Source of the DNA: an uncultured Chlamydiae bacterium
GTDB taxonomy: Bacteria > Chlamydiota > Chlamydiia > Chlamydiales > JAJFMA01
DNA length: 64,000 nucleotides
Assembly: GCA_963713615.1 (NCBI GenBank)
Contig: CAVQMM010000001.1
Location: 1,920,001-1,984,000, forward strand
Direction of reading: 5' to 3'
Part shown: positions 37,145 through 53,893 of the stretch, piece after piece
Layout of the letters: every line of letters starts with the position of its first letter
Position numbering within the stretch: position 1 is the first letter of the stretch
The notes under the pieces: generated by a model
What the model was told of the DNA's origin: nothing
Seen by the model: only the letters and a program-made list of their open reading frames with translations
The model's database searches: none
Translations under genes and position numbers: made by a program

Positions 37145-38689
37145 TTATTCGGCAGTGGGGGCTGATGAGGTGGATGAGGCCTTTGCTTGTCGCCTGGCGG
37201 CAGCCCAAGCGTCGGGCAGAAGCTCGTGAAGTTTTTGAGAATTATGGGCTGGCAGGCGCCTCATCACATCCTCTAGGTATTCGTGGGGGTTGACTCCTAT
37301 CGCGCGGCAGGTCTGTACCAGGCTTAGCAGTACGGCGGAAGCTTCCCCACCCTCCTCGCTTCCAATAAACATCCAGTTCTTGCGGCCAATAGCTAGAGGG
37401 CGTATCGCTCGCTCCGCTACATTGTTGTCGAGACGCGCAAATGCATGTTGGGTGTAGTTTTTCAGATGGGGAATTAAGCTGCAATAATAGCCTAGAGCCT
37501 CCCTTAGATTCGATTTGGGAAGAGCCTTGCCATTAACCAGCCGGTCCTTGATGCGTGCAGTCAGCTCATCTATTATTGGAGCTTCTTTCTCTTGTCTTAT
37601 CCGCAGACGTTCCTCTGGAGAACGTTCCCAAGCAACTCTCTCTAACATAAATAGATATTTTATCTTGCGCAGTACCCAGCTAACAAATTTTTTATCGCCA
37701 CCTACAGCGTCGAAAAACTTGCGCCGAATGTGACTCCAGCATGGACACCAAGTGAATTGCTTCTTATTAGCCAGTGCTTCATAGGCTCCATATTTATCCG
37801 AATGGACAACACCTTTATATCCAGCTAGTATTTCCACAGCATGCTTGTGGCAGCGGTCCGTGCGAAAATGATAGACTCGATAAGGCGGATTTTTTTCCTG
37901 CCCTCCAACGATCACCCACATAAAAGCCTGGTGCACCTTTCCCTTACCAGGGACAAGCATGTCCACAGGAGATTCGTCCACAAAAACATTGTTGCTGCTG
38001 AGCACGCGAGCAATCATTTCTTCATATAGCGCCTTTAAGGCATATCCACAGCGCATTACCCACTTGCAAAGTATTTGTCGGCTGATGAGAATGCCCTCGC
38101 GAGCTAAGATTTCCGATTGACGAAATAAAGGAAGGTGATCGGCGAATTTTTTCACGATCACACTGGCTAAAAGACTTTCATCGGCTTGACAGCGAGGAAA
38201 AATGCTATCTGGTAAATCTGCGATAAAAACGCCCTCTTCACTATGTGCTCTACATGCATACTTGGGACGTACTAGCTCCTTGACGTAGTAGCTACCTGGC
38301 GTATGCGCTATTTTGTGAGTGACTTCTTCGCCAATTTTGACGAGGGCTTCACCCGTTGTAGGGCAAACTTTTTGATCCTCTGGCAAATCTAAAATACAGC
38401 GTTGAACGGGAATATTGTCTGGAAGCGTAATTTTATCTTTGCCATTGCGCCCCTGCTTAACCCGTCGATGAGCAGGCACATTTATTGTCTCTTTTTGCTC
38501 TTCGGAACCAAGATTTTCGAAACCTTCCAGGTAGAGTTGTTGACCGCCATCGTCGACTACTTTTTCCGAACGTTTCCCAAAAATCTGACGCCTAAACCAT
38601 TCAAGCTGCTCCTTGAGAAAGCTATTCTCATTTCGCAGGGAATAAATTTCCGATTGAAGCTGTTCTAGTGATAGTGTTGAGGTTTCCAT
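37145..38689 (-). CDS. tnpC: IS66 transposase TnpC
   Basis: FGKRSEK, HLPLFRQ, DESP, CWSHIRRKF, LDNNVAERAIR..AIGRKNWMF. Confidence 0.96.
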   Translation of the reverse strand: METSTLSLEQLQSEIYSLRNENSFLKEQLEWFRRQIFGKRSEKVVDDGGQQLYLEGFENLGSEEQKETINVPAHRRVKQGRNGKDKITLPDNIPVQRCILDLPEDQKVCPTTGEALVKIGEEVTHKIAHTPGSYYVKELVRPKYACRAHSEEGVFIADLPDSIFPRCQADESLLASVIVKKFADHLPLFRQSEILAREGILISRQILCKWVMRCGYALKALYEEMIARVLSSNNVFVDESPVDMLVPGKGKVHQAFMWVIVGGQEKNPPYRVYHFRTDRCHKHAVEILAGYKGVVHSDKYGAYEALANKKQFTWCPCWSHIRRKFFDAVGGDKKFVSWVLRKIKYLFMLERVAWERSPEERLRIRQEKEAPIIDELTARIKDRLVNGKALPKSNLREALGYYCSLIPHLKNYTQHAFARLDNNVAERAIRPLAIGRKNWMFIGSEEGGEASAVLLSLVQTCRAIGVNPHEYLEDVMRRLPAHNSQKLHELLPDAWAAARRQAKASSTSSAPTAE

Positions 38690-38771
38690 ATGCTCTAAAT
38701 CATATCACAGACCCCCTCTATTATCAAGTATTTTATCTAATAAAATGCACATTGTTTTTAGGATTTTAGGC

Positions 38772-39353
38772 TCAATGACTACTCTCCAACAACATTAGAA
38801 ATTCTCGACGATCGATAGCGGAATCTGGAATGCTTCCATTGCGAAAACTTCCTTTTTCAAGTCGCTTGTACCAGACGGCATGACCATTACCATCCCAGTA
38901 AAAGACCTTCACTAGATTTCTACGACGATTTAAAAAAACGAAGTAGGCCCCGCAGGTAAATTCGCCCGAGAACGAACTGTCAACAAGATTGCTCAAGCAC
39001 TCAAATCCCTTTCGCATATCGATCGGCTCTTGATAGAGAAAGACACCCTTGTTTTTCTGATATGACGACCTCAGAGTTTTGCTCGCAGACTTTAGGGTTA
39101 GATAGACGCTCTTCTGATCAAGCGAAAGCTTGAGCTCGGGCAGGGTAATGTCTATCCAACCCGTCGAGGAAATGTGGTCGGGCGGGCTAACTTTAAAGCG
39201 TTGGTACCAGTACAAGAGCTGCTGGTAGCTTATATTGTTCTCTAGGCACCACCTGCGGCCACTCTGACCGCTCGCCATCCATTGGTCTATGCGTCGAGCC
39301 CACTCAGAACGCTTCCTTTTGAAATCCATTAGTATCTCCATGGTTAGGGTCAT
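38772..39353 (-). CDS. IS66 accessory protein, TnpA-TnpB fusion
   Basis: N-terminal W...SGQS..WC....YW (TnpA-like) in frame with DMRKGF...FVFLNRRR..VK.FYWDG.G...YKRLEKG (IS66 TnpB). Confidence 0.88.
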   Translation of the reverse strand: MTLTMEILMDFKRKRSEWARRIDQWMASGQSGRRWCLENNISYQQLLYWYQRFKVSPPDHISSTGWIDITLPELKLSLDQKSVYLTLKSASKTLRSSYQKNKGVFLYQEPIDMRKGFECLSNLVDSSFSGEFTCGAYFVFLNRRRNLVKVFYWDGNGHAVWYKRLEKGSFRNGSIPDSAIDRREFLMLLESSH

Positions 39354-43578: not shown

Positions 43579-44688
43579 TTAGTCGTTAAAAAACGATCGA
43601 AACATCCACTCCAACGATGCGTTCACGACTTGCTGATCAACCGTTGTGCAGTAACTACCTTTAAACGGCAATGACTCGCCAATACCACCAATCATCACAA
43701 ACCGTGGCAGGCTCTTCGTCGATTTCTTATCGAGAATCATGGCATCGCTCGTCGCTAGTGATGTCATCCCTGTAGGCAGTTTCAGAGGCAATTGATACTG
43801 TCGAAGCACATCGTGGATACGTCTAAAAGAAGTTTCATCCAGATAACCCAGCTGCACAGCCATGTGGGCTTCCACCAACAATCCCAAAGCGACTGCTTCG
43901 CCATGCGCCAACGAGTACTCCGATAGCAACTCCAGGGCATGCCCCACAGTATGTCCAAAGTTCAGAAGGCGACGCATCCCTTGCTCTTTCTCATCTTGCT
44001 CAACAATCGTTTTCTTGATGGCACAGCTATCAAAAATGGCCTTAGCTAAAAGTTCTTCATCACCAGCCAAAAGTTCCTCCGCATGCTGTGCCAAAAACTC
44101 AAAGTGCTGGTAATCGGTGATGCATCCGTGCTTGATCATCTCCACAAAGCCGTTTCGAAGCTCGTTAATCGATAGGGTCTTCAAAACGATTGGATCTATC
44201 AACACCTTTCTGGGTTGATAGATGCTTCCCACGAGGTTTTTACCATAGGGAACATCAACACCTACCTTACCACCAATGCTAGCATCCACCATGGCTAGCA
44301 GAGACGTCGGGGCCATAATTAAGGGTACCCCTCGGCAATACGTTGCCGCTATATACCCTCCCATATCGGTCACGACGCCACCACCCAAAGCAATCACACA
44401 GGTATCTCGTCCCAGTCCCTGCTTAAACATCTGATCTTCCAAAAATGCCTTGGTCTCGCGTGTCTTATGTCGTTCTCCACTTGGAAACGTGAATAGCCAC
44501 GCCTGCCAGCCATGGTCAACAAGCATCGCTTGTAGCTGAAGGGCATGTAACGGACCCACTATGCTATCACTAATGATCACAAAGCGGCTGCCGCAATTTT
44601 CAAAACAGGCACGCTCCGACAATACTCCACTACGGATCTCAATATCGTACGCAACAGCAGGTTGCGAAATCTCACACGTCAGCTTCAT
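43579..44688 (-). CDS. aroB: 3-dehydroquinate synthase
   Basis: GGGVVTD, PTSLLAMVDASIGGK, LNFGHTVGHALE, HGEAV. Confidence 0.96.
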   Translation of the reverse strand: MKLTCEISQPAVAYDIEIRSGVLSERACFENCGSRFVIISDSIVGPLHALQLQAMLVDHGWQAWLFTFPSGERHKTRETKAFLEDQMFKQGLGRDTCVIALGGGVVTDMGGYIAATYCRGVPLIMAPTSLLAMVDASIGGKVGVDVPYGKNLVGSIYQPRKVLIDPIVLKTLSINELRNGFVEMIKHGCITDYQHFEFLAQHAEELLAGDEELLAKAIFDSCAIKKTIVEQDEKEQGMRRLLNFGHTVGHALELLSEYSLAHGEAVALGLLVEAHMAVQLGYLDETSFRRIHDVLRQYQLPLKLPTGMTSLATSDAMILDKKSTKSLPRFVMIGGIGESLPFKGSYCTTVDQQVVNASLEWMFRSFFND

Positions 44689-45776
44689 AGTCGCACACAT
44701 CGATTGTAAAGGTATGCGTCAACAAGCACCAAAGCAACCATAGCTTCGACAATCGGGACGGCACGTATGGCAACGCAAGGATCATGACGCGAACCTACAG
44801 GCAGCTGAAAGGCTGCAGCTTCTCCCGAAGTGGTGACAGTCTGCTGCTGCTTCATAATGCTGGATGTAGGCTTAAAAGCGACTCGTCCTACCAATGGCAT
44901 TCCTGTCGAAATCCCACCAAGAGTCCCACCAGCATAGTTGGTATGCGTCTTAATTTCCCCACCCTCTTCGGTAAAGACATCGTTGTGCTGAGATCCTGGC
45001 ATGGTCACAGCACGGAAACCAGAGCCCATCTCAAACCCCTTAGTAGCAGGTAGCGACATCATCGCATGGGCTAGGCTGGCTTCCAGCTTGTCGTAGATGG
45101 GGTCTCCGAGGCCCACAGGTAATCCTGCCGCAGAAAACTCGATGACACCACCAAGAGAATCTCCTTCAGCCTTGGCCTTCTCTATCAACGCTGCCATAGC
45201 GGCAGTCCCTTGTTCATCTGGACAAAACAATGGGCTCCGATAGGTAGCGTCTCGGAGGTCGCCAGGCGGAATGTGCTCAACGTTGGCCTCGATGACCCCT
45301 ATTTGCTTAATGTATGCTGTGATCTCAATACCCACGCGGTGCAGTAGCTTGATGGCGATAGCACCAGCAGCCACGCGCCCTACCGTTTCACGTGCCGAAG
45401 AACGTCCACCGCCTCGATAGTCAAAAATGCCATACTTCTCCAAATAGGTAAAGTTGGCATGACCAGGCCTCAAGAGGTCTTTAATCGGCTCATATTTGCT
45501 GGAGTCAGCGTCCTTATTACGCACGACGATGCAAATGGGAGCGCCTGTAGTACGTCCCTCAAAGACGCCTGAAAGGATTTCAGCCTTGTCAGACTCTTGC
45601 CGAGGGGTGGTATACGGATTACGTCCAGGAGCTCGCAGCGCCAAGGCAGCATTGATCTCACTGTCATCGATCTCTAGGCCTGCAGGACAGCCATCGATGA
45701 CCACTCCAACGGCTTTTCCATGAGATTCTCCCCAGGTAGTTATCCTAAAGATCCGTCCAAACGCGTTGCTAGCCAT
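44685..45776 (-). CDS. aroC: Chorismate synthase
   Basis: GESHG, RPGHA, GGGRSSARET, FKPTSS, RHDPC. Confidence 0.97.
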   Translation of the reverse strand: MASNAFGRIFRITTWGESHGKAVGVVIDGCPAGLEIDDSEINAALALRAPGRNPYTTPRQESDKAEILSGVFEGRTTGAPICIVVRNKDADSSKYEPIKDLLRPGHANFTYLEKYGIFDYRGGGRSSARETVGRVAAGAIAIKLLHRVGIEITAYIKQIGVIEANVEHIPPGDLRDATYRSPLFCPDEQGTAAMAALIEKAKAEGDSLGGVIEFSAAGLPVGLGDPIYDKLEASLAHAMMSLPATKGFEMGSGFRAVTMPGSQHNDVFTEEGGEIKTHTNYAGGTLGGISTGMPLVGRVAFKPTSSIMKQQQTVTTSGEAAAFQLPVGSRHDPCVAIRAVPIVEAMVALVLVDAYLYNRCVRL

Positions 45777-46299
45777 GCTCTAACCTACGTACAATTTCGG
45801 ATACGATTTGCTCCTGGCTTAAATTGCTAACTTCTAAGGTTACATTTGCCACAGATTCATAGGTGGCTTGTCGTTGTTCAGCTAACTCATAAAAGGCCTT
45901 TTCAGGATCCCCAAGATCCAGATCCAGATATGAAGGTGTTTCGCGCTGTTTCACGCGCTCCCAAAGCACCTTAGGGTCAGCCTTGAGGTAGATCAGGCAT
46001 CCTTCTCGTCTTAGCACTGCGAGATTTACGGGATTAAGCAGTGTGCCTCCGCCTACAGCGATGATAGTCGGTGGCTCGAGTTTCAGTTGGAGGATCTGCT
46101 GTTTTTCTAAGATGCGAAAATAGTCAGCTCCTTCCTTCAGGCTAATCTGACGACAGGTGCACGCCAATCCCGTCTTGGCAGTGTAAGCGGCTTCGATGAG
46201 CGCGTCAGTATCGATGAGTTTCCATCCCCACAACTCGGCGATCTTCTTGGCCACGGTGGTCTTACCGCTTCCAGGCATGCCGCATAAAATCAAATTCAT
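45769..46299 (-). CDS. aroK: Shikimate kinase
   Basis: GMPGSGKTT, DTD, FR..E, GGG. Confidence 0.93.
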   Translation of the reverse strand: MNLILCGMPGSGKTTVAKKIAELWGWKLIDTDALIEAAYTAKTGLACTCRQISLKEGADYFRILEKQQILQLKLEPPTIIAVGGGTLLNPVNLAVLRREGCLIYLKADPKVLWERVKQRETPSYLDLDLGDPEKAFYELAEQRQATYESVANVTLEVSNLSQEQIVSEIVRRLEHG

Positions 46300-47585
46300 A
46301 GTGTCTCCTTAATATTAGCTCCAAGAGCATTAAAATCGTGCAAAAAGGTCGGAAAGGTCTTTGCCACACACTCGACAGGTCCAATCGTTGTCTGTCCTTG
46401 CGCACCTAGGCCAGCCACGGTCAAAGACATGACCATGCGATGATCATGATAGGAATGTACTTGCGTACCTTTTAAAGCGGACTTCCTGATGCGTAACCCA
46501 TCTTCCAGCTCGACGACATCAGCACCCATTTTGCGCAGTTCGGTGGCTATACATTGAATGCGATTGCACTCCTTTTGCCTGGCCACTGCAGCATTATAAA
46601 TATGTGTCTCGCCTTCCGCATAACAGGCGACTACAGCCAGAATCGTAATGGCATCAACAAAGTCATTGATATCAACGGCAATGCCGCGAAGAACTTGATT
46701 GGCTGGAATATGCAAAGTACGTTGGTTAGCATCAATCTCAATCGATGCTCCCATGCGCTGAAAAACGTTGATGAGTTCCTTGTCACCTTGCGTATCGCTC
46801 ATATCCACATTGCGAAGTGTGAGCGCTGAGCCCGTTACAAGGGCTGCTGCAAGCGGAAAAGCCACTGAGCTGAGGTCGCCAGGAACAGGGTAATCAAACC
46901 CGGCAACGTGGGCATTGCCGCGCATACGATAGTGTCGATAGTCTTGGTGTTCATAGGGGATTCCCAGTCGATCAAACCAATCTAAAGTCAGCGCAACCCA
47001 AGGTTTTTCGCCGGGGTTGGGCACCAAGAGATCAATAGGTCCTTGGGCAAAGGCTGCAGCAATCAATAGTGAAGAGACTGGCTGGGAGTCTTCACCTTCA
47101 ACTTGAGTGCTTCCGGCCTTCAGGGGTCCCTGGATAATAATCGGAGCAAAACCATCGCCACGGGTAGATATGGCTGATACACCCAGTTGAGCGAGGCCAT
47201 CGAGCAAGGGCTTCATCGGCCTTTGATGCCGAATGGAGTAGTCGCCCGTAATCACGATAGGTCGGTCCGCCAAAGCGGCTATAGCCGCACAGAAACGCAA
47301 TACGATACCCGAATTGCCAGCGTTGATGACATCTTCGGCATACTGAATCCGGCCACCTACCCCACCGATGTTAATCTGGTCTGGCAAGACCTCCAAGGTG
47401 GCCCCTAGCAAACGGCAGGCTTCGATCATCGCGCGGGCATCAGGCGAATCCAGGTAGTTGCATATTGTCGTCTTCCCCGTTGCCAAAGCGCCAAAGAGAA
47501 TAGCTCGCAAAGTATGCGACTTGGATGGCGGCACAAGGATGTCCCCATGCAATGTGGCTTTATTGACCAAGTATTGACTCATCAT
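46296..47585 (-). CDS. aroA: EPSP synthase
   Basis: PPSKS..RA, GNSG, SQPVSSLL, KECNRI, DHRMVMS. Confidence 0.96.
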   Translation of the reverse strand: MMSQYLVNKATLHGDILVPPSKSHTLRAILFGALATGKTTICNYLDSPDARAMIEACRLLGATLEVLPDQINIGGVGGRIQYAEDVINAGNSGIVLRFCAAIAALADRPIVITGDYSIRHQRPMKPLLDGLAQLGVSAISTRGDGFAPIIIQGPLKAGSTQVEGEDSQPVSSLLIAAAFAQGPIDLLVPNPGEKPWVALTLDWFDRLGIPYEHQDYRHYRMRGNAHVAGFDYPVPGDLSSVAFPLAAALVTGSALTLRNVDMSDTQGDKELINVFQRMGASIEIDANQRTLHIPANQVLRGIAVDINDFVDAITILAVVACYAEGETHIYNAAVARQKECNRIQCIATELRKMGADVVELEDGLRIRKSALKGTQVHSYHDHRMVMSLTVAGLGAQGQTTIGPVECVAKTFPTFLHDFNALGANIKETL

Positions 47586-48639
47586 GAAGCTCCTTATCAA
47601 TCGTTAGCTGATCAATTAAACAGTCAAGGTAACTGCGTATGAACTTCTGATTGAACATTTCAATTTCCGCCCGCATCTCCCTATTTCCATGTGCCAAACG
47701 CGTAAACGAATGAAAGCCAGGGCCTGCCATTTCTAGACTGGCTGGATCTGCTGCCTGCACTAACCGCCAAACGCTTTTCGACAGAATGCCAGGAATGTGC
47801 GATACCAGAGCAGCGCGTTGATCGTGTACATCTGCATCGAGATCAAGCGGTTCAGCGCCCAAAAATCGAATAAACGCCTTTGTCTGCTGTAGCGCCTGAA
47901 TACAGTTTTTGCCATGGGGTACGACGACCCAGGGTCTTCCGACAAAAAGCGTCGCCTGGCCATTGGCAAAACCGCGCTTTTCTGTTCCTGCCATCGGATG
48001 CGTCCCCACAAACTCTACGCGAGCGTCCGATAGCTTTTCAAAAGCCTCCACAATGTTTTCCTTCACGCTAGCAATGTCGATCACGAGCAGCTTCCGAGCG
48101 TTGTAGCGATGCCGCTGAATCTCTTCTGCCAGGGGCACCACGGAAGAAATGGGACTAGCCAGGATAATCACCTCAGAGTATTCCATCAGCTCTACAAGAG
48201 TGTCGCAAGACCTGTCTATGCAACCATTCTCGATTGCCAGAACATAATCCTCCGAAGAGTGCACCATAGTGGCTATTTCAATCGTTGGATCCTTCAACTT
48301 AATGGCTTTGCAAATGGATCCTCCCATCAAGCCTAGCCCAATGATGCCTACTCGCCTAAAGGGGCTTGCGGGATATTTGAAAAACTGCTGACTTATTTTG
48401 GACCCTTCTATGATGGCTTGAAAGATTATGCCGATGCTCTCCTTAAGCACAGGATGCTGCACCTGCATCTCTGCACGCTCCACAATCGTTCCTTCGCGTC
48501 CTTTGTCCGTTAAGGGAAGGTTGTGTTGGTATTTGACTTGGCCGATCTGACCCACCATGGTCATTCTTTCATCCAATAACGAGGTAATTTGAGCATCAAT
48601 TTGATCCAGGCGATCACGCAATGACGTTAAGTTTTCCAT
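47560..48639 (-). CDS. tyrA: Chorismate mutase-prephenate dehydrogenase fusion
   Basis: LR..LD.ID..I..LL.ER (AroQ), then GLGLMGGS, HPMAGTE, HD...SH.P. Confidence 0.9.
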   Translation of the reverse strand: MENLTSLRDRLDQIDAQITSLLDERMTMVGQIGQVKYQHNLPLTDKGREGTIVERAEMQVQHPVLKESIGIIFQAIIEGSKISQQFFKYPASPFRRVGIIGLGLMGGSICKAIKLKDPTIEIATMVHSSEDYVLAIENGCIDRSCDTLVELMEYSEVIILASPISSVVPLAEEIQRHRYNARKLLVIDIASVKENIVEAFEKLSDARVEFVGTHPMAGTEKRGFANGQATLFVGRPWVVVPHGKNCIQALQQTKAFIRFLGAEPLDLDADVHDQRAALVSHIPGILSKSVWRLVQAADPASLEMAGPGFHSFTRLAHGNREMRAEIEMFNQKFIRSYLDCLIDQLTIDKELHDESILGQ

Positions 48640-49451
48640 AATATTCCTGCTTTGTAAAGTCCTAATATTCTTATTGTTTGACCAAGAGTAGCCAATTCGG
48701 CATGACCGCACTGGGTCATGTCGTCTGTAAACTCGAAGTCCACGTAAAACACATATTCAAATGGCTGACCGCGTAAGGGGCGCGACTCCATCTTCATGAG
48801 ATTGAAGCCTTGACTGCTAAAGCGGTTCAACACGGCGGCTAGTGCTCCGGGAACATGCTCCAAACGCAAGGATAAGGAACACTTACTGGCGCCAGGAACA
48901 ACGACCCTTTCCTTAGATACGATCACGAACCGCGTATAGTTGCTTGGATCGTCCTCAATCCCTCGCTGCAATCCCGACAGCCCATAGATCTCACCCGCCG
49001 ATGCACTGGCAATAGCGGCATAGGCAGGGTCTCCTGAAGCAGAAACAGATGCTGCCGCCGCGGCAGTATCGCTATGCGCGATACCTTGCATCCAAGGATG
49101 CTTTTCGAAGAATGCTAAGCATTGCTCCAAGGCTTTGGGATGCGAAAACACAGTCTTAACATCCTTTAAAGTGGCATGAGGCATCCCAAGCAGACAGTGG
49201 TCAACCTTAAGAAAATGCTCTTCAACAATAGTGAACTGATGCTGCTCCAGGAGGTCATAATTTTCATAAATTGACCCCACTAAGCTATTTTCAATAGGAA
49301 CAGCAGCATAGTCAGCCTCACCATCCTCAAGCCGCTGAAACACTTCTCGGAATGTCTTGGCGCTCACAAAATGGTTGTCTTGGCCGGAACTTTTCACAGC
49401 AGCTAAATAGCTAAATGAGCCTCTCAGCCCTAGATGTGCGATCGTCTTCAT
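48627..49451 (-). CDS. pheA: Prephenate dehydratase with ACT domain
   Basis: PIENS..GS, SHPKALEQC, NYTRF, ESRP; ATGA overlap with the upstream gene. Confidence 0.93.
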   Translation of the reverse strand: MKTIAHLGLRGSFSYLAAVKSSGQDNHFVSAKTFREVFQRLEDGEADYAAVPIENSLVGSIYENYDLLEQHQFTIVEEHFLKVDHCLLGMPHATLKDVKTVFSHPKALEQCLAFFEKHPWMQGIAHSDTAAAAASVSASGDPAYAAIASASAGEIYGLSGLQRGIEDDPSNYTRFVIVSKERVVVPGASKCSLSLRLEHVPGALAAVLNRFSSQGFNLMKMESRPLRGQPFEYVFYVDFEFTDDMTQCGHAELATLGQTIRILGLYKAGILWKT

Positions 49452-50254
49452 GCGATGTCCCATTGGTATTTGGGTCCCTGAGTAATCCTCAACAGCTCTT
49501 TGAATTGTTCAGGAGAGAGCTGCTGCTTCGCATCCGTCTTAGCCTTCTGGGGCTCGCTATGCATTTCCACCAAGCAACCATCGAAGTCATAAGCCGCTGA
49601 CGCCGCCATCACATCGAGGACATTTTCCGGTGACCCACCAATATGAGAGGGATCCAACAACATGGGGATACCCGTCTGCTGCTTCACTCGCATAGCCATG
49701 TCGAAATCGGGCAGATTGCGAAAGCCCTTAGGGTTCGGCTGTTTGCCCGGGCAGAAACCGCGGTGGCAGGTCATCAGACGTTCCTGCGGGAATCCAGCCG
49801 CCAGAAGGTGCTCGTAGATACCTAGCCAATGCCGCTCATCATCCCACATCTGGTTCTTGAACATCAGAGTGATGCCTTTGGGGCCTGCGGCAAGAATCTG
49901 AGCAATACGCCTCTGTTCGATATGGTTTTGGTTGCGCGATCCCAGCCACACCAGCATGCGCGCATCGCGTCCATAATGTTCCAAAGCTTGCACGATCATG
50001 TGAGCGTGCTCGACGCTGATGATCTCCGTGGCTGGGGTCATGCCATGAGCAAGCGTCTCTTCCAATAAAAGTGGAAGGCTCATCCATCCGAGTCCCTCCC
50101 AACCCGGCTGTGTGCGCGGTTTCCATAAGGAGGCTCGTATCATGGTGACGCCCAGCTGCTTTAAAATTCGCGCACACTCTCTTAGCTGGTGCCGAGATTC
50201 CAAAGCACATGGGCCCGCAATGACCCATTTGCCGATATTTGTCTGTTTAAGCAT
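49448..50254 (-). CDS. DAHP synthase (class I beta)
   Basis: IAGPCALES, WKPRT.P.WEG.G, CHRGF, DPSH, E.H..P..A.TD..QQ. Confidence 0.88.
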   Translation of the reverse strand: MLKQTNIGKWVIAGPCALESRHQLRECARILKQLGVTMIRASLWKPRTQPGWEGLGWMSLPLLLEETLAHGMTPATEIISVEHAHMIVQALEHYGRDARMLVWLGSRNQNHIEQRRIAQILAAGPKGITLMFKNQMWDDERHWLGIYEHLLAAGFPQERLMTCHRGFCPGKQPNPKGFRNLPDFDMAMRVKQQTGIPMLLDPSHIGGSPENVLDVMAASAAYDFDGCLVEMHSEPQKAKTDAKQQLSPEQFKELLRITQGPKYQWDIA

Positions 50255-50287
50255 TTTTCAAATCCTTTCTTTTTTTGATTTTGGACA

Positions 50288-50316
50288 ATAAAAAACCCCG
50301 CCTTAGGCGGGGTTTG
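50288..50316 (-). terminator. Attenuator terminator 2 (proximal)
   Basis: Minus strand aaaccccgcc-taa-ggcggggtttttt, about 35 nt before the DAHP synthase start. Confidence 0.9.
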
Positions 50317-50350
50317 CGTTTGGGTTAGCCTTATTTTTATGCTAACGACA

Positions 50351-50464
50351 TCACAACTCCCGCCATGGGTGTGGAGTAAAAAAGTAATAATAAAAGTAGA
50401 AGCTGCAGCCTTGGACAGAAGCCCTAAACTCGATGGCAGGATTGTGACTGTCTGAATGATACAT
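50351..50464 (-). CDS. Phe/Tyr-rich leader peptide 2: MYHSDSHNPAIEFRASVQGCSFYFYYYFFTPHPWREL
   Basis: Translated by hand; 8 consecutive Phe/Tyr codons; 3' end ggcgggagttgtg complementary to the 5' arm of terminator 2. Confidence 0.88.
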   Translation of the reverse strand: MYHSDSHNPAIEFRASVQGCSFYFYYYFFTPHPWREL

Positions 50465-50503
50465 TTTATTTTATTCCACTAAAAACTGGTTCGGATTCGG
50501 ACC

Positions 50504-50536
50504 AAAAAAAAGCCCCGCTTGTGGCGGGGCTTTTTT
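50504..50536 (-). terminator. Attenuator terminator 1 (distal)
   Basis: Minus strand aaaaaagccccgc-cacaa-gcggggctttttttt. Confidence 0.9.
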
Positions 50537-50564
50537 GATCACTTGTTAAAGTTTATTACAAGCG

Positions 50565-50636
50565 TCAGCTAGCCTCACACCACTTAGGTGCCTTCATAAA
50601 GTAATAGAAGTAGGCAAAAGCTAACAAATGACGCAC
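50565..50636 (-). CDS. Phe/Tyr-rich leader peptide 1: MRHLLAFAYFYYFMKAPKWCEAS (GTG start)
   Basis: AAGGA 9 nt before GTG; FAYFYYF run; gtggtgtgaggct complementary to agccccgccac of terminator 1. Confidence 0.82.
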   Translation of the reverse strand: MRHLLAFAYFYYFMKAPKWCEAS

Positions 50637-50665
50637 TGTAACGCATCCTTTATTTATTTAACCTA

Positions 50666-50695
50666 ATTTTAAATTAATTAGCTATTTTTTTGCAA
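50666..50695 (-). promoter_or_regulatory. Putative sigma66/sigma70 promoter of the aro operon leader
   Basis: Minus strand TTGCAA-N18-TAAAAT, about 30 nt upstream of leader 1. Confidence 0.5.
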
Positions 50696-50825
50696 GGACT
50701 TTAAGCTTACCCTAGAGGGCTTAATGTCCATTTCTGTCCATAGTGTCCATGCTGTCCATTAATGTCCATTCTAGCCCCAGTATAAATGGACTTTATGGAC
50801 AATAATGGACTCCATGGACAGAAAT

Positions 50826-52165
50826 GCCAGGGGTCAGTCGTGACTTATTGACTTGTTGCCTTCAGTCAAAGGGCCTGTCCGTAACGAAAAGTCAACAAGT
50901 CACGTCTAGACCCCTAACACGTCTGACCCCTAACATTGTGAGAAGGCGATTCTGGAGAGCTTAAGTGGTATGGCACTATCCAGTCTGGAAAGACAGGCTT
51001 TTTTCCCTTCCCAGGCCCGAAGGGTCGATATTGCAACAGGCCATGGCATCGCCATGGTATATGCCAAAACGGTTTTAGCAGCCTGTAGGGCTGCCATAAA
51101 GCGCATGCATAAATGGTGTTTGTAAACTGGCGTCTTGTAGCAGTCCTTCAGACTGCGAAATCCCTTCCTGGCATATACCATGGCGATGCCATCGGCCTGT
51201 TGCAATATCGACCCTTCGGGCCTGGGAAGGGAGAATGCCAGGGGTCAGTCGTGACTTATTGACTTGTTGCCTTCAGTCAAAGGGCCTGTCCGTAACGAAA
51301 AGTCAACAAGTCACGTCTGACCCCTAACATCTGACCCCTAGCATTGTGAGAAGGCGATTCTGGAGAGCTTAAGTGGTATGGCACTATCCAGTCTGGAAAG
51401 ACAGGCTTTTTTTCCCTTCCCAGGCCCGAAGGGTCGATATTGCAACAGGCCATGGCATCGCCATGGTATATGCCAAAACGGTTTTAGCAGCCTGTAGGGC
51501 TGCCATAAAGCGCATGCATAAATGGTGTTTGTAAACTGGCGTCTTGTAGCAGTCCTTCAGACTGCGAAATCCCTTCCTGGCATATACCATGGCGATGCCA
51601 TGGCCTGTTGCAATATCGACCCTTCGGGCCTGGGAAGGGAGAATGCCAGGGGTCAGTCGTGACTTATTGACTTGTTGCCTTCAGTCAAAGGGCCTGTCCG
51701 TAACGAAAAGTCAACAAGTCACGTCTGACCCCTAACATTGTGAGAAGGCGATTCTGGAGAGCTTAAGTGGTATGGCACTATCCAGTCTGGAAAGACAGGC
51801 TTTTCTCCCTTCCCAGGCCCGAAGGGTCGATATTGCAACAGGCCATGGCATCGCCATGGTATATGCCAAAACGGTTTTAGCAGCCTGTAGGGCTGCCATA
51901 AAGCGCATACATAAATGGTGTTTGTAAACTGGCGTCTTGTAGCAGTCCTTCAGACTGCGAAATCCCTTCCTGGCATATACCATGGCGATGCCATGGCCTG
52001 TTGCAATATCGACCCTTCGGGCCTGGGAAGGGAGAAAAGCCTGTCTTTCCAGACTGGATAGTGCCATACCACTTAAGCTCTCTAGAATCGCCTTCTCACA
52101 AAAAAAGGTAACCTTTTTTCCCGAGAATCGATTCTCAAGGGCTCAAATAATTTTGCAATTACCTC
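50826..52165. repeat. Three tandem ~400-bp units of two palindromic elements, ending in a GAGGTAAT-type MITE end
   Basis: ggggtcagtcgtgac...gtcacgtctgacccc and cccaggcccgaagggtcg...cgacccttcgggcctggg each occur three times; right end ttttgcaattacctc matches 39820-39834. Confidence 0.9.
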
Positions 52166-52461: not shown

Positions 52462-53520
52462 TCATGTACTAACCCTTCTACCTCTCTCTTTGAGGATGGA
52501 TATTGTTTCTTCAAGCTTCCACCGACCCTTTAGTGCCAAATCATAAACTGATAGTACTGTCTCACTTGTTTGACTATAATTGACCCCTAAGCCGCAATTA
52601 GTTACAAACAGGAAAGCCTCTTCAAAACTAAGCCCATGATATTTAATTAAATAAGCAAGGACTATTACATAATTCCACTCAGCTTCGTTAGTAAAACGGT
52701 AAAGCAAAACCCCGCCATTATGAATGCATCGATAGAGAACGTCTGCATAATAATCTAGCCGAAGATACTGATCAACTGCAGACCCATCCACCTGAACAAG
52801 CGATCCTATCTGATAGCCTTGCAATTCGATACCTTTTTCGTTTAGGTAATTGGCGTTCAAGTTTTGGGTCCATTCCATGGGACATATCAGATGTTTAACG
52901 TCCATGTCGTCTACAAGCTCGTGACACCTGCCGTTACCTACGAACAAGCCAGGCAAAACCTTATAATAATATGGCTTGTCTGACGAATTCAAAGGTAAGT
53001 CTTTTTGCGTTAAGCCTACAGGTAAAGGTAATATTTCTTCTGGTATGCCATCTTCATTTCCAGGTTGTTTCAACAAATTATTTATGTCAGCAAGAGCATT
53101 TTTTACTATTTCTTTTTCACACTCAGTGACAAGACTGTCAAATGGTTGCGACTGTTCAATTAGGTCGTTAATGTTTCCATTACCTGCGCTATGCGACTGG
53201 TCACTCATCTCTTTGTTCGGTTTCGATAACCCAGTTTTGAGGTTCCAGTTGTTTTCATCATCTACCTGCTGCTCTACGACGGTTTCTCCATTAAGTGCTC
53301 GCTTAGCTGCTAGGTAATTTTTTGCAAACATAGCACCTGCAATTAAAAATGCAGTAGTGACACAACCAAAGGCTAGCGTTTGGGTGGAGTTGTTCCGGTC
53401 TTCATTGGACTTATTCAAAGCATTTACTGCTGGAGCTAAAGCACTTAATGTAGTAATAGCAATATATGATGGTCTAACATGCTCTGCTACTGTATTTAAT
53501 AAACTTCTTATTGCTTCCAT
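52462..53520 (-). CDS. Putative effector with hydrophobic N-terminus and degenerate dual-specificity-phosphatase domain
   Basis: LPGLFVGN...GGVLL...IVLAYLIKYHGLSFEEAF.FV; no HCxxGxxRS. Confidence 0.65.
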   Translation of the reverse strand: MEAIRSLLNTVAEHVRPSYIAITTLSALAPAVNALNKSNEDRNNSTQTLAFGCVTTAFLIAGAMFAKNYLAAKRALNGETVVEQQVDDENNWNLKTGLSKPNKEMSDQSHSAGNGNINDLIEQSQPFDSLVTECEKEIVKNALADINNLLKQPGNEDGIPEEILPLPVGLTQKDLPLNSSDKPYYYKVLPGLFVGNGRCHELVDDMDVKHLICPMEWTQNLNANYLNEKGIELQGYQIGSLVQVDGSAVDQYLRLDYYADVLYRCIHNGGVLLYRFTNEAEWNYVIVLAYLIKYHGLSFEEAFLFVTNCGLGVNYSQTSETVLSVYDLALKGRWKLEETISILKERGRRVST

Positions 53521-53893
53521 AACTTGTTCTCCTCTTATGAGATTATGATTTTTATGGCGATAATACATAAATTGAATGTTTCACACAAGTTGAATTTCTT
53601 TCCACTGCATTAGTCCAACCTAGTTTAATAGACAATATGGACATGATGGATGTTTGTAAAACAAAGAAAATTCTTTAAAGCAGTTGTAACTCTTAAAGGT
53701 ATTGAAGAATCAGCTCAAGGATCTGTTAGCCCCGGGGAGTTAAGCGCTTATGGAGCATCACTCTAGGTAGATATTTACTAATTACAAGTTATAATGAATA
53801 ACCATTACACACAAAATTAAATAGATTAATATTGACCTATATTACTATAAACATTAAAGTATCAACTTAGTCCTGCAGAAGGTAACTATAAGT

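Follow-up and report, generated by a model that had tools for sequence, protein, structure and literature searches.

Two homologous Phe/Tyr leader peptides as probable serial attenuators of an aromatic amino acid operon in an uncultured chlamydial bacterium

The aromatic amino acid operon of an uncultured chlamydial bacterium is preceded by two homologous leader ORFs rich in Phe and Tyr codons. From their anatomy, their conservation and the modelled folding of their RNA, these leaders are likely to be classical ribosome-mediated attenuators arranged in series on one transcript. They lie on the minus strand of the 64,000-nt stretch of DNA analysed here (the window), and the pair recurs ahead of related aroF loci in 14 relatives, with start codons in the Phe/Tyr frame in nearly all modules and with no good promoter match before the second leader.

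Results

The aromatic operon and its two leader modules

The operon lies on the minus strand, with the gene order aroF-pheA-CM/tyrA-aroA-aroK-aroC-aroB. Its first gene (49448..50254, ATG at 50254) encodes an aroF-like DAHP synthase of 268 amino acids. It is followed by the genes for prephenate dehydratase (pheA, 48627..49463) and a tyrA-like chorismate mutase/prephenate dehydrogenase (CM/tyrA, 47560..48711), and by the overlapping genes aroA, aroK, aroC and aroB, which extend to the end of the operon (43579..47600). The assignments of aroF, CM/tyrA and aroK are based on scores under the curated cut-offs.

An earlier note on this DNA had described two minus-strand mini-ORFs of common layout, at 50636-50565 and 50464-50351. 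Both are found at these positions, and their terminators, small hairpins and G-rich strands are all as described there. Each module consists of a run of Phe/Tyr codons, a G-rich strand at the end of the ORF, a small hairpin and a GC stem with a U-tract; all the coordinates below refer to the minus strand. A sigma70-type promoter-like site (TTGCAA-18-TAAAAT, 50666..50695) is located 29 nt ahead of leader 1; this site is weak alone (1 found versus 1.7 expected by chance), and a comparable site is present ahead of leader 1 in most relatives. Leader ORF 1 (50565..50636) encodes 23 amino acids from a GTG start, read as Met, with a Shine-Dalgarno-like (SD) AAGGA 9 nt ahead of it (50646..50650). Its control codons, FAYFYYF (50598..50618), include three Phe and three Tyr. 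Downstream lie the antiterminator strand, predicted by folding to pair with the 5' arm of terminator 1 (50571..50583), the inner hairpin of antiterminator 1, also predicted by folding (50540..50564), and a predicted intrinsic terminator (terminator 1, 50504..50530) with a 7-bp GC stem, an energy of -14.4 kcal/mol and a U8 tract. A 39-nt spacer (50465..50503), with a weak SD (GGA) and without a good promoter match, leads to leader ORF 2 (50351..50464), which has an ATG start, encodes 37 amino acids and carries the control codons FYFYYYFF (50378..50401), four Phe and four Tyr. The folding model places the second antiterminator strand, the predicted partner of the terminator-2 5' arm, at 50352..50364 and its inner hairpin at 50324..50346. 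The predicted intrinsic terminator 2 (50287..50312) has a 7-bp GC stem, an energy of -13.6 kcal/mol and a U6 tract followed by AUU. The Trp codon near the end of the window leader ORFs lies inside the antiterminator strand and was not counted as a control codon, because a ribosome stalled there would be expected to mask that strand; Trp is present within the run itself in the leaders of some relatives.

Such an arrangement is rare in the 3.97 Mb genome: three of 110 terminator-like hairpins were preceded by a short ORF rich in Phe, Tyr or Trp codons, two of them being the window modules and the third a weak hairpin that no gene follows. In two metatranscriptome runs (7% of words present), contigs of 222 and 238 nt fell within CM/tyrA and pheA, and the sole match to the leader region was a 34-nt unrelated hairpin, an outcome that speaks neither for nor against the model.

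Leader modules in aroF relatives

Relatives of aroF were drawn from genome contigs (10 loci), from the relatives of this genome and its order, and from metagenomes (best 80 of 200). Ten duplicates (L037, L039, L047, L051, L083, L084, L096, L098, L104 and L113) were dropped, as was L131; also excluded were weak matches to paralogs, with identities of about 26-42%, and a single fragment at a contig edge. The window itself is locus L011. Modules were called by a script, with a strict caller used for the counts and a looser version also run; kin among the surveyed loci are not independent. A quick protein tree of 98 rows comprised a chlamydial side (39 rows) and a sister side (59 rows). The frameshifted L010 lay outside the tree and was counted with the chlamydial side, giving 40 loci.

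On the chlamydial side, aroF is followed by pheA or CM/tyrA at 25 loci, of which 15 (window included) have two modules, eight have one and two have none. Modules therefore precede 23 of these 25 loci, versus none of the other 15 aroF loci of the clade (12 stand-alone and three followed by aroA; three with less than 230 nt upstream). Contig ends truncate three of the eight single-module loci; in one of the three, L059, a further terminator is visible at the edge. At least five relatives (L004, L005, L038, L056 and L061) manage with one leader, indicating that the second is dispensable. In the 15 doubles, the start, run, spacing, antiterminator and terminator are kept in both modules, with aroF 57-77% identical to that of the window. 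The search upstream of homologous operons that the earlier note had proposed thus found the double leader conserved in 14 relatives. The aroF gene itself is patchy, being present in 15 of the 400 genomes scored in the order, a count that includes the window, and in none of six in its own family (E 1e-50); one genome of the same genus has a 61% aroF fragment at a contig edge.

The double-leader arrangement extends beyond Chlamydiae. With the strict caller, 18 of the 59 sister-side loci had two modules, 33 had one and eight had none; four of these eight show a module by looser calls and three have less than 80 nt upstream. The sister aroF clade is probably CPR.

Two further observations concern distant loci and other DAHP synthases. 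At L081 and L130, both distant, genes resembling trpB-trpA (named by eye from N-terminal sequence) lie directly upstream of a Phe/Tyr/Trp leader and aroF. At L016 (G049) and L017 (G016), on the reverse strand at ~1040-1145, DAHP synthase genes of a different clade have short ORFs ahead of them with a Phe/Tyr run right before the stop. These ORFs share a small hairpin over the stop codon, with no clear U-tract terminator, and are possibly a second type of attenuator.

Reading frame, control codons and a predicted relay form

Start codons (ATG or GTG) lie in the Phe/Tyr frame in 36 of 37 modules, the corresponding counts for the other two frames being four and three; leader 2 of L057 has neither ATG nor GTG. 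A Leu-run ORF with an ATG start, which overlaps leader 1 in the -1 frame (50649-50584), was considered and rejected, given this distribution of starts (36/37 versus 4/37 in the -1 frame). Its Leu run arises automatically when TWY codons are read in the -1 frame.

Over 12 doubles, the control codons were F42 Y37 W1 in module 1 and F57 Y43 W0 in module 2. Both positions carry Phe and Tyr codons, so the pair repeats one signal rather than forming a Phe-AND-Tyr gate; a division of labour between a Phe and a Tyr module was not seen in this set and was rejected. The four operons lacking pheA have Tyr-dominated control codons (F4 Y21 W3), set against F128 Y95 W5 for the other 19 (two runs slightly undercounted), and pheA was not found in the three genomes searched of these four (completeness 91%, 61% and unstated). 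In G061, there was no PDH match and the leader is Tyr-free; G012 also lacks a PDH match and its leader keeps Tyr, and the leader of G079 is Tyr-free with PDH present. Codon content thus matches operon content only partly.

Two single-leader loci from different branches, L005 and L056, have one leader followed by two abutting terminators (L005:2901-2955 and L056:2398-2450). Folding with a stalled ribosome frees the terminator-1 3' arm, which then pairs with the terminator-2 5' arm (-39.7 and -39.2 kcal/mol, respectively), so that the two terminators are predicted in this model to be linked by relay pairing.

Of 39 terminators at gene ends in the genome, only two were found within 12 nt of a stop codon. 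The spacing pattern of terminators has reportedly been linked to the coupling of transcription and translation in B. subtilis, and the small number of terminators near stops, as an uncalibrated count, suggests such coupling here. Several distant loci (L067, L068, L071, L072, L077, L080, L092 and others) have a -10 match no more than 9-11 nt from the leader 1 ATG and mostly lack SD motifs, suggesting that their leader ORFs are nearly leaderless. Leader 2 of these loci often stops two codons past the run.

Predicted folding of the leaders

When the window leaders were folded without the terminator 3' arm, the G-rich strand paired with the terminator 5' arm, with energies of -25.0 kcal/mol in module 1 and -24.7 kcal/mol in module 2 (z -4.8 and -4.1, respectively), and none of 200 shuffles was as stable for either module. 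The antiterminator beat shuffles in 34 of the 38 chlamydial modules. A stalled ribosome was modelled as a mask of 12 nt from the last control codon. The 5' strand of the antiterminator started 12-20 nt past that codon, at +17 in 22 of 38 modules, the floor of 12 being set by the mask. Folded up to the leader stop, module 1 gave -18.7 and module 2 only -10.3, and no conserved 1:2 helix was defined.

The energy at the decision point was calculated as terminator minus antiterminator (in kcal/mol, U-tract excluded) and is given in the order stalled/ribosome at stop/no ribosome. The window modules gave +0.3/-14.6/-8.9 and +0.4/-10.6/-7.4, the medians of the 38 chlamydial modules were -0.2/-11.5/-9.1, and the E. 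coli controls gave -6.2/-16.2/-16.2 (pheL) and -2.7/-12.0/-12.0 (trpL). The antiterminator was favoured in 17 of 38 stalled modules, in none with a ribosome at the stop and in one without a ribosome. Folding with and without ribosome-masked segments, as suggested in the earlier note, thus yields predicted energies that switch as in the pheL and trpL controls; by this comparison, the modules switch in the model at least as well as validated ones. In an equilibrium fold including the U-tract, run on the chlamydial modules, the terminator was favoured (P ≥ 0.9) in 29 of 38 stalled modules. Since the terminator wins at equilibrium even in the stalled state, antitermination must be kinetic and would depend on a pause of the polymerase.

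Covariation in the antiterminator columns of the chlamydial set was not significant (91.7% paired, one two-sided change, 79 of 500 shuffles as high). When partners were swapped between modules, the antiterminator duplex that a module forms with its own partner beat the mean foreign duplex in 25 of the 38 close modules and in 65 of the 69 distant ones; among the latter, GGGAGG/CCTCCC and GCGGGG/CCCCGC pairs replace one another.

Probable series arrangement and age of the duplication

As the earlier note had pointed out, a separate promoter between the leaders would make them independent units. By consensus scoring, leader 1 was preceded by a promoter score of at least 10 in 10 of the 15 close doubles and in 11 of the distant ones (14 of 18 scored), and leader 2 in none of the 29. 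The regions compared differ in base composition, so that this result is supporting rather than decisive. The spacer between the modules ranges from 3 to 167 nt across doubles. No shared operator upstream of the promoter was evident by eye at the 15 loci.

Modules of the same locus have a mean identity of 58%, and those of the same position 64-65% (module 1 mean 0.64, module 2 0.65). The nearest neighbour of window module 1 is module 1 of L055 (77%), and that of window module 2 is module 2 of L052 (81%). Because each module most resembles the modules at its own position, the duplication appears to be old, predating the divergence of the operons, with both copies kept. The module tree itself had no branch with support ≥ 95. 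Duplication in the assembly or a recent repeat was ruled out, given that the leader region is single-copy in the genome and that the window modules are nearest to same-position modules of relatives.

The surrounding DNA contains several repeats. At 50823-52036, a 393-bp unit occurs three times in tandem; parts of it gave 570 BLAST matches in the genome, many of them 99% identical, with arrays of ~473 bp, and it represents a dispersed repeat family or a small mobile element. A short degenerate repeat rich in TGGAC/GTCCA (50701-50823; 104 BLAST matches in the genome) ends just upstream of the promoter-like site. Two ORFs at 37145-39353 resemble, by eye, an IS66-type transposase and accessory protein. 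The gene upstream of leader 1 (52462-53568) has a paralog of 485 amino acids (26%) at whose end the 3' half of module 1 recurs with 83% identity (G000 C1:352963-353028), including the stop, inner hairpin and terminator; this copy may be half of an attenuator that was captured and now serves as a simple terminator.

Discussion

Proposed mechanism and alternative explanations

The earlier note had read both leaders as following the logic of ribosome-mediated attenuation known from pheL and trpL. The anatomy of the modules, their predicted energies, the presence of the pair in 14 relatives, the frame of the starts and the absence of any good match to a promoter between the modules all support this reading. 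Transcription would begin at a single promoter located before leader 1. When charged tRNA-Phe and tRNA-Tyr are abundant, the ribosome is predicted from folding to reach the stop and cover the G-rich strand, allowing terminator 1 to form, and the few polymerases leaking past it would meet the same test at leader 2. With Phe or Tyr short, the ribosome is predicted to stall in the run, leaving the G-rich strand 16-20 nt downstream free to capture the 5' arm of the terminator while its 3' arm has yet to be synthesized, and the polymerase would read on. Each module would thus act as an OR sensor, responding to starvation for either Phe or Tyr. For the pair, read-through would be the product of the two read-throughs, with the consequence that the basal leak would be squared and the response steeper; repression may be multiplied or the response sharpened in this way, as the earlier note had proposed. 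Stacking would give the range that repressor-plus-attenuator systems obtain from two layers.

The pair might contain a single working module, the other being an inert or always read-through duplicate. The occurrence of at least five relatives with a single leader, together with the shorter U-tract of terminator 2 and the weak SD of leader 2 in the window, would be consistent with this, but both modules keep all their parts in 15 loci and module 2 is as well conserved as module 1; we consider such redundancy improbable. Coupling of the modules, whereby read-through of module 1 would alter the loading or folding of module 2 and generate a cooperative or two-threshold response, has a similarly small chance of being correct. 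It would accord with the relay pairing predicted for L005 and L056 in the stalled state and with the longer run of module 2 (100 versus 80 aromatic codons over 12 loci). Against it, a translated ORF and ~200 nt separate the window terminators, spacer length is variable (11 to 167 nt), and no strong, specific pairing of the freed arm was obtained in the window when antiterminator 1 was enforced in the fold.

Two independent attenuated entry points, each module having its own promoter, are very improbable: in the window, a TAAAAT immediately precedes the leader 2 ATG, and spacers reach 100-167 nt in a few relatives, but the TAAAAT lacks a -35 partner, spacers as short as 3-11 nt exist, and the score before leader 2 never reached 10 in the 29 doubles. 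We attach the least weight to a leucine signal read through the -1 frame, or to irrelevance of the ORFs with the hairpins acting through a protein or as plain terminators, for which there is hardly any likelihood. The Leu-run ORF is present in the window, but its ATG abuts the SD, few modules have a start in its frame, its run follows automatically from TWY codons, and the regulated genes make Phe and Tyr. The reading that we prefer therefore remains that of two ribosome-mediated Phe/Tyr attenuators in series.

Other features of the genome bear on the place of such a system among its aromatic regulators. No match to the TyrR-type HTH domain (PF18024) was found in this genome, which is 99% complete. 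TrpR and a Trp-Trp leader accompany the trp genes, and a separate DAHP synthase goes with trpEG. At G000 C1:1016517-1016995, trpR is followed by a short ORF ending in Trp-Trp-Arg-Leu-Thr-Ala and then by trpD-trpC-trpF-trpB-trpA. The genome scan found no intrinsic terminator at this locus, and the short ORF is a candidate trpL of another type. These features fit an aromatic operon that is specific for Phe and Tyr and gains its range by stacking.

Comparison with known systems

The closest counterpart in anatomy is E. coli pheL-pheA (Rfam Phe_leader, RF01859), which has a Phe run, a G-rich strand near the end of the ORF, an inner hairpin, a terminator with a C-rich 5' arm and the three-state energy pattern. 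Unlike the window pair, it is a single module, responds to Phe only and controls pheA alone. Rfam gave sub-threshold matches only, the window modules scoring 31.4 and 31.0 bits against RF01859, below its gathering score of 55. Mixed leaders are known from the aroR-aroF attenuator of C. glutamicum (Neshat et al. 2014, as summarized in the available text of PMC11802643), in which a leader with Phe-Tyr-Phe precedes a DAHP synthase operon; there is one leader there, whereas two with three to four Tyr each are found here. According to the same review text, Tyr availability had no effect on transcription, a result that, by analogy, calls for caution about Tyr sensing here. The Acholeplasma uORFC-13-1 motif, in which a predicted uORF containing Phe codons and a terminator precede aroF, differs from the window pair, as far as its description in PMC8632094 goes, in being a single motif found in Acholeplasma and unassigned environmental DNA.

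Tandem T-boxes are serial sensors, each with its own intrinsic terminator. The same is described for the tandem riboswitches of B. clausii metE in the accessible portion of PMC3641672. These tandem riboswitches and T-boxes sense a ligand or tRNA through RNA, whereas the translating ribosome would be the sensor here. The leader of Salmonella mgtCBR has two short ORFs, each controlling transcription of the operon, with additive responses to ATP and proline, and is contrasted with leaders having two intrinsic terminators (excerpts of PMC3641672). It thus combines two different signals, whereas the window has two homologous copies of a module for one signal, each with an intrinsic terminator. The same 2012 paper, in these excerpts, presents a single attenuator per biosynthetic operon as the norm.

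Within Chlamydiae, leader peptides have likewise been proposed before amino acid genes: the putative trpL leaders in the available parts of PMC7755916 and PMC3937554 are single, Trp only and unvalidated, and that of C. trachomatis is termed atypical and a poor predicted attenuator there. The survey of Naville and Gautheret, in its accessible sections, notes that hardly any of the predicted chlamydial attenuators has an assigned function; Protochlamydia is among the genomes in its tables, which may thus contain a chlamydial terminator that precedes aroF. No report of tandem Phe/Tyr leaders, in Chlamydiae or elsewhere, was found in the literature searched (subscription journals outside coverage). 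The mechanism is old; what sets this system apart is the doubling of a module for one signal, the occurrence of such a layout in Chlamydiae, the apparent retuning of codons and the predicted relay form.

Significance

Classical leader-peptide attenuation has no validated chlamydial case in the accessible text of PMC7755916 and PMC3937554, and the window provides a clean, conserved candidate. Natural single, double and predicted relay versions occur in close relatives, so that multiplied repression and a sharpened response can be compared directly by experiment. The pair may also offer a compact part for a Phe/Tyr biosensor. It would imply coupled transcription and translation and real fluctuations of Phe and Tyr in these host-associated bacteria. 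More tentatively, and with the balance of our judgement somewhat against it, a portable and stackable aromatic-sensing attenuator may accompany a single clade of DAHP synthases as it moves between CPR bacteria and environmental Chlamydiae, tuned by the number of modules, by the rewriting of codons to match the terminal enzymes and by the collapse of module 2 into a relay terminator switched by module 1. If so, serial sensing by ribosomes would replace a repressor and provide a squared, steeper response in host-dependent bacteria.
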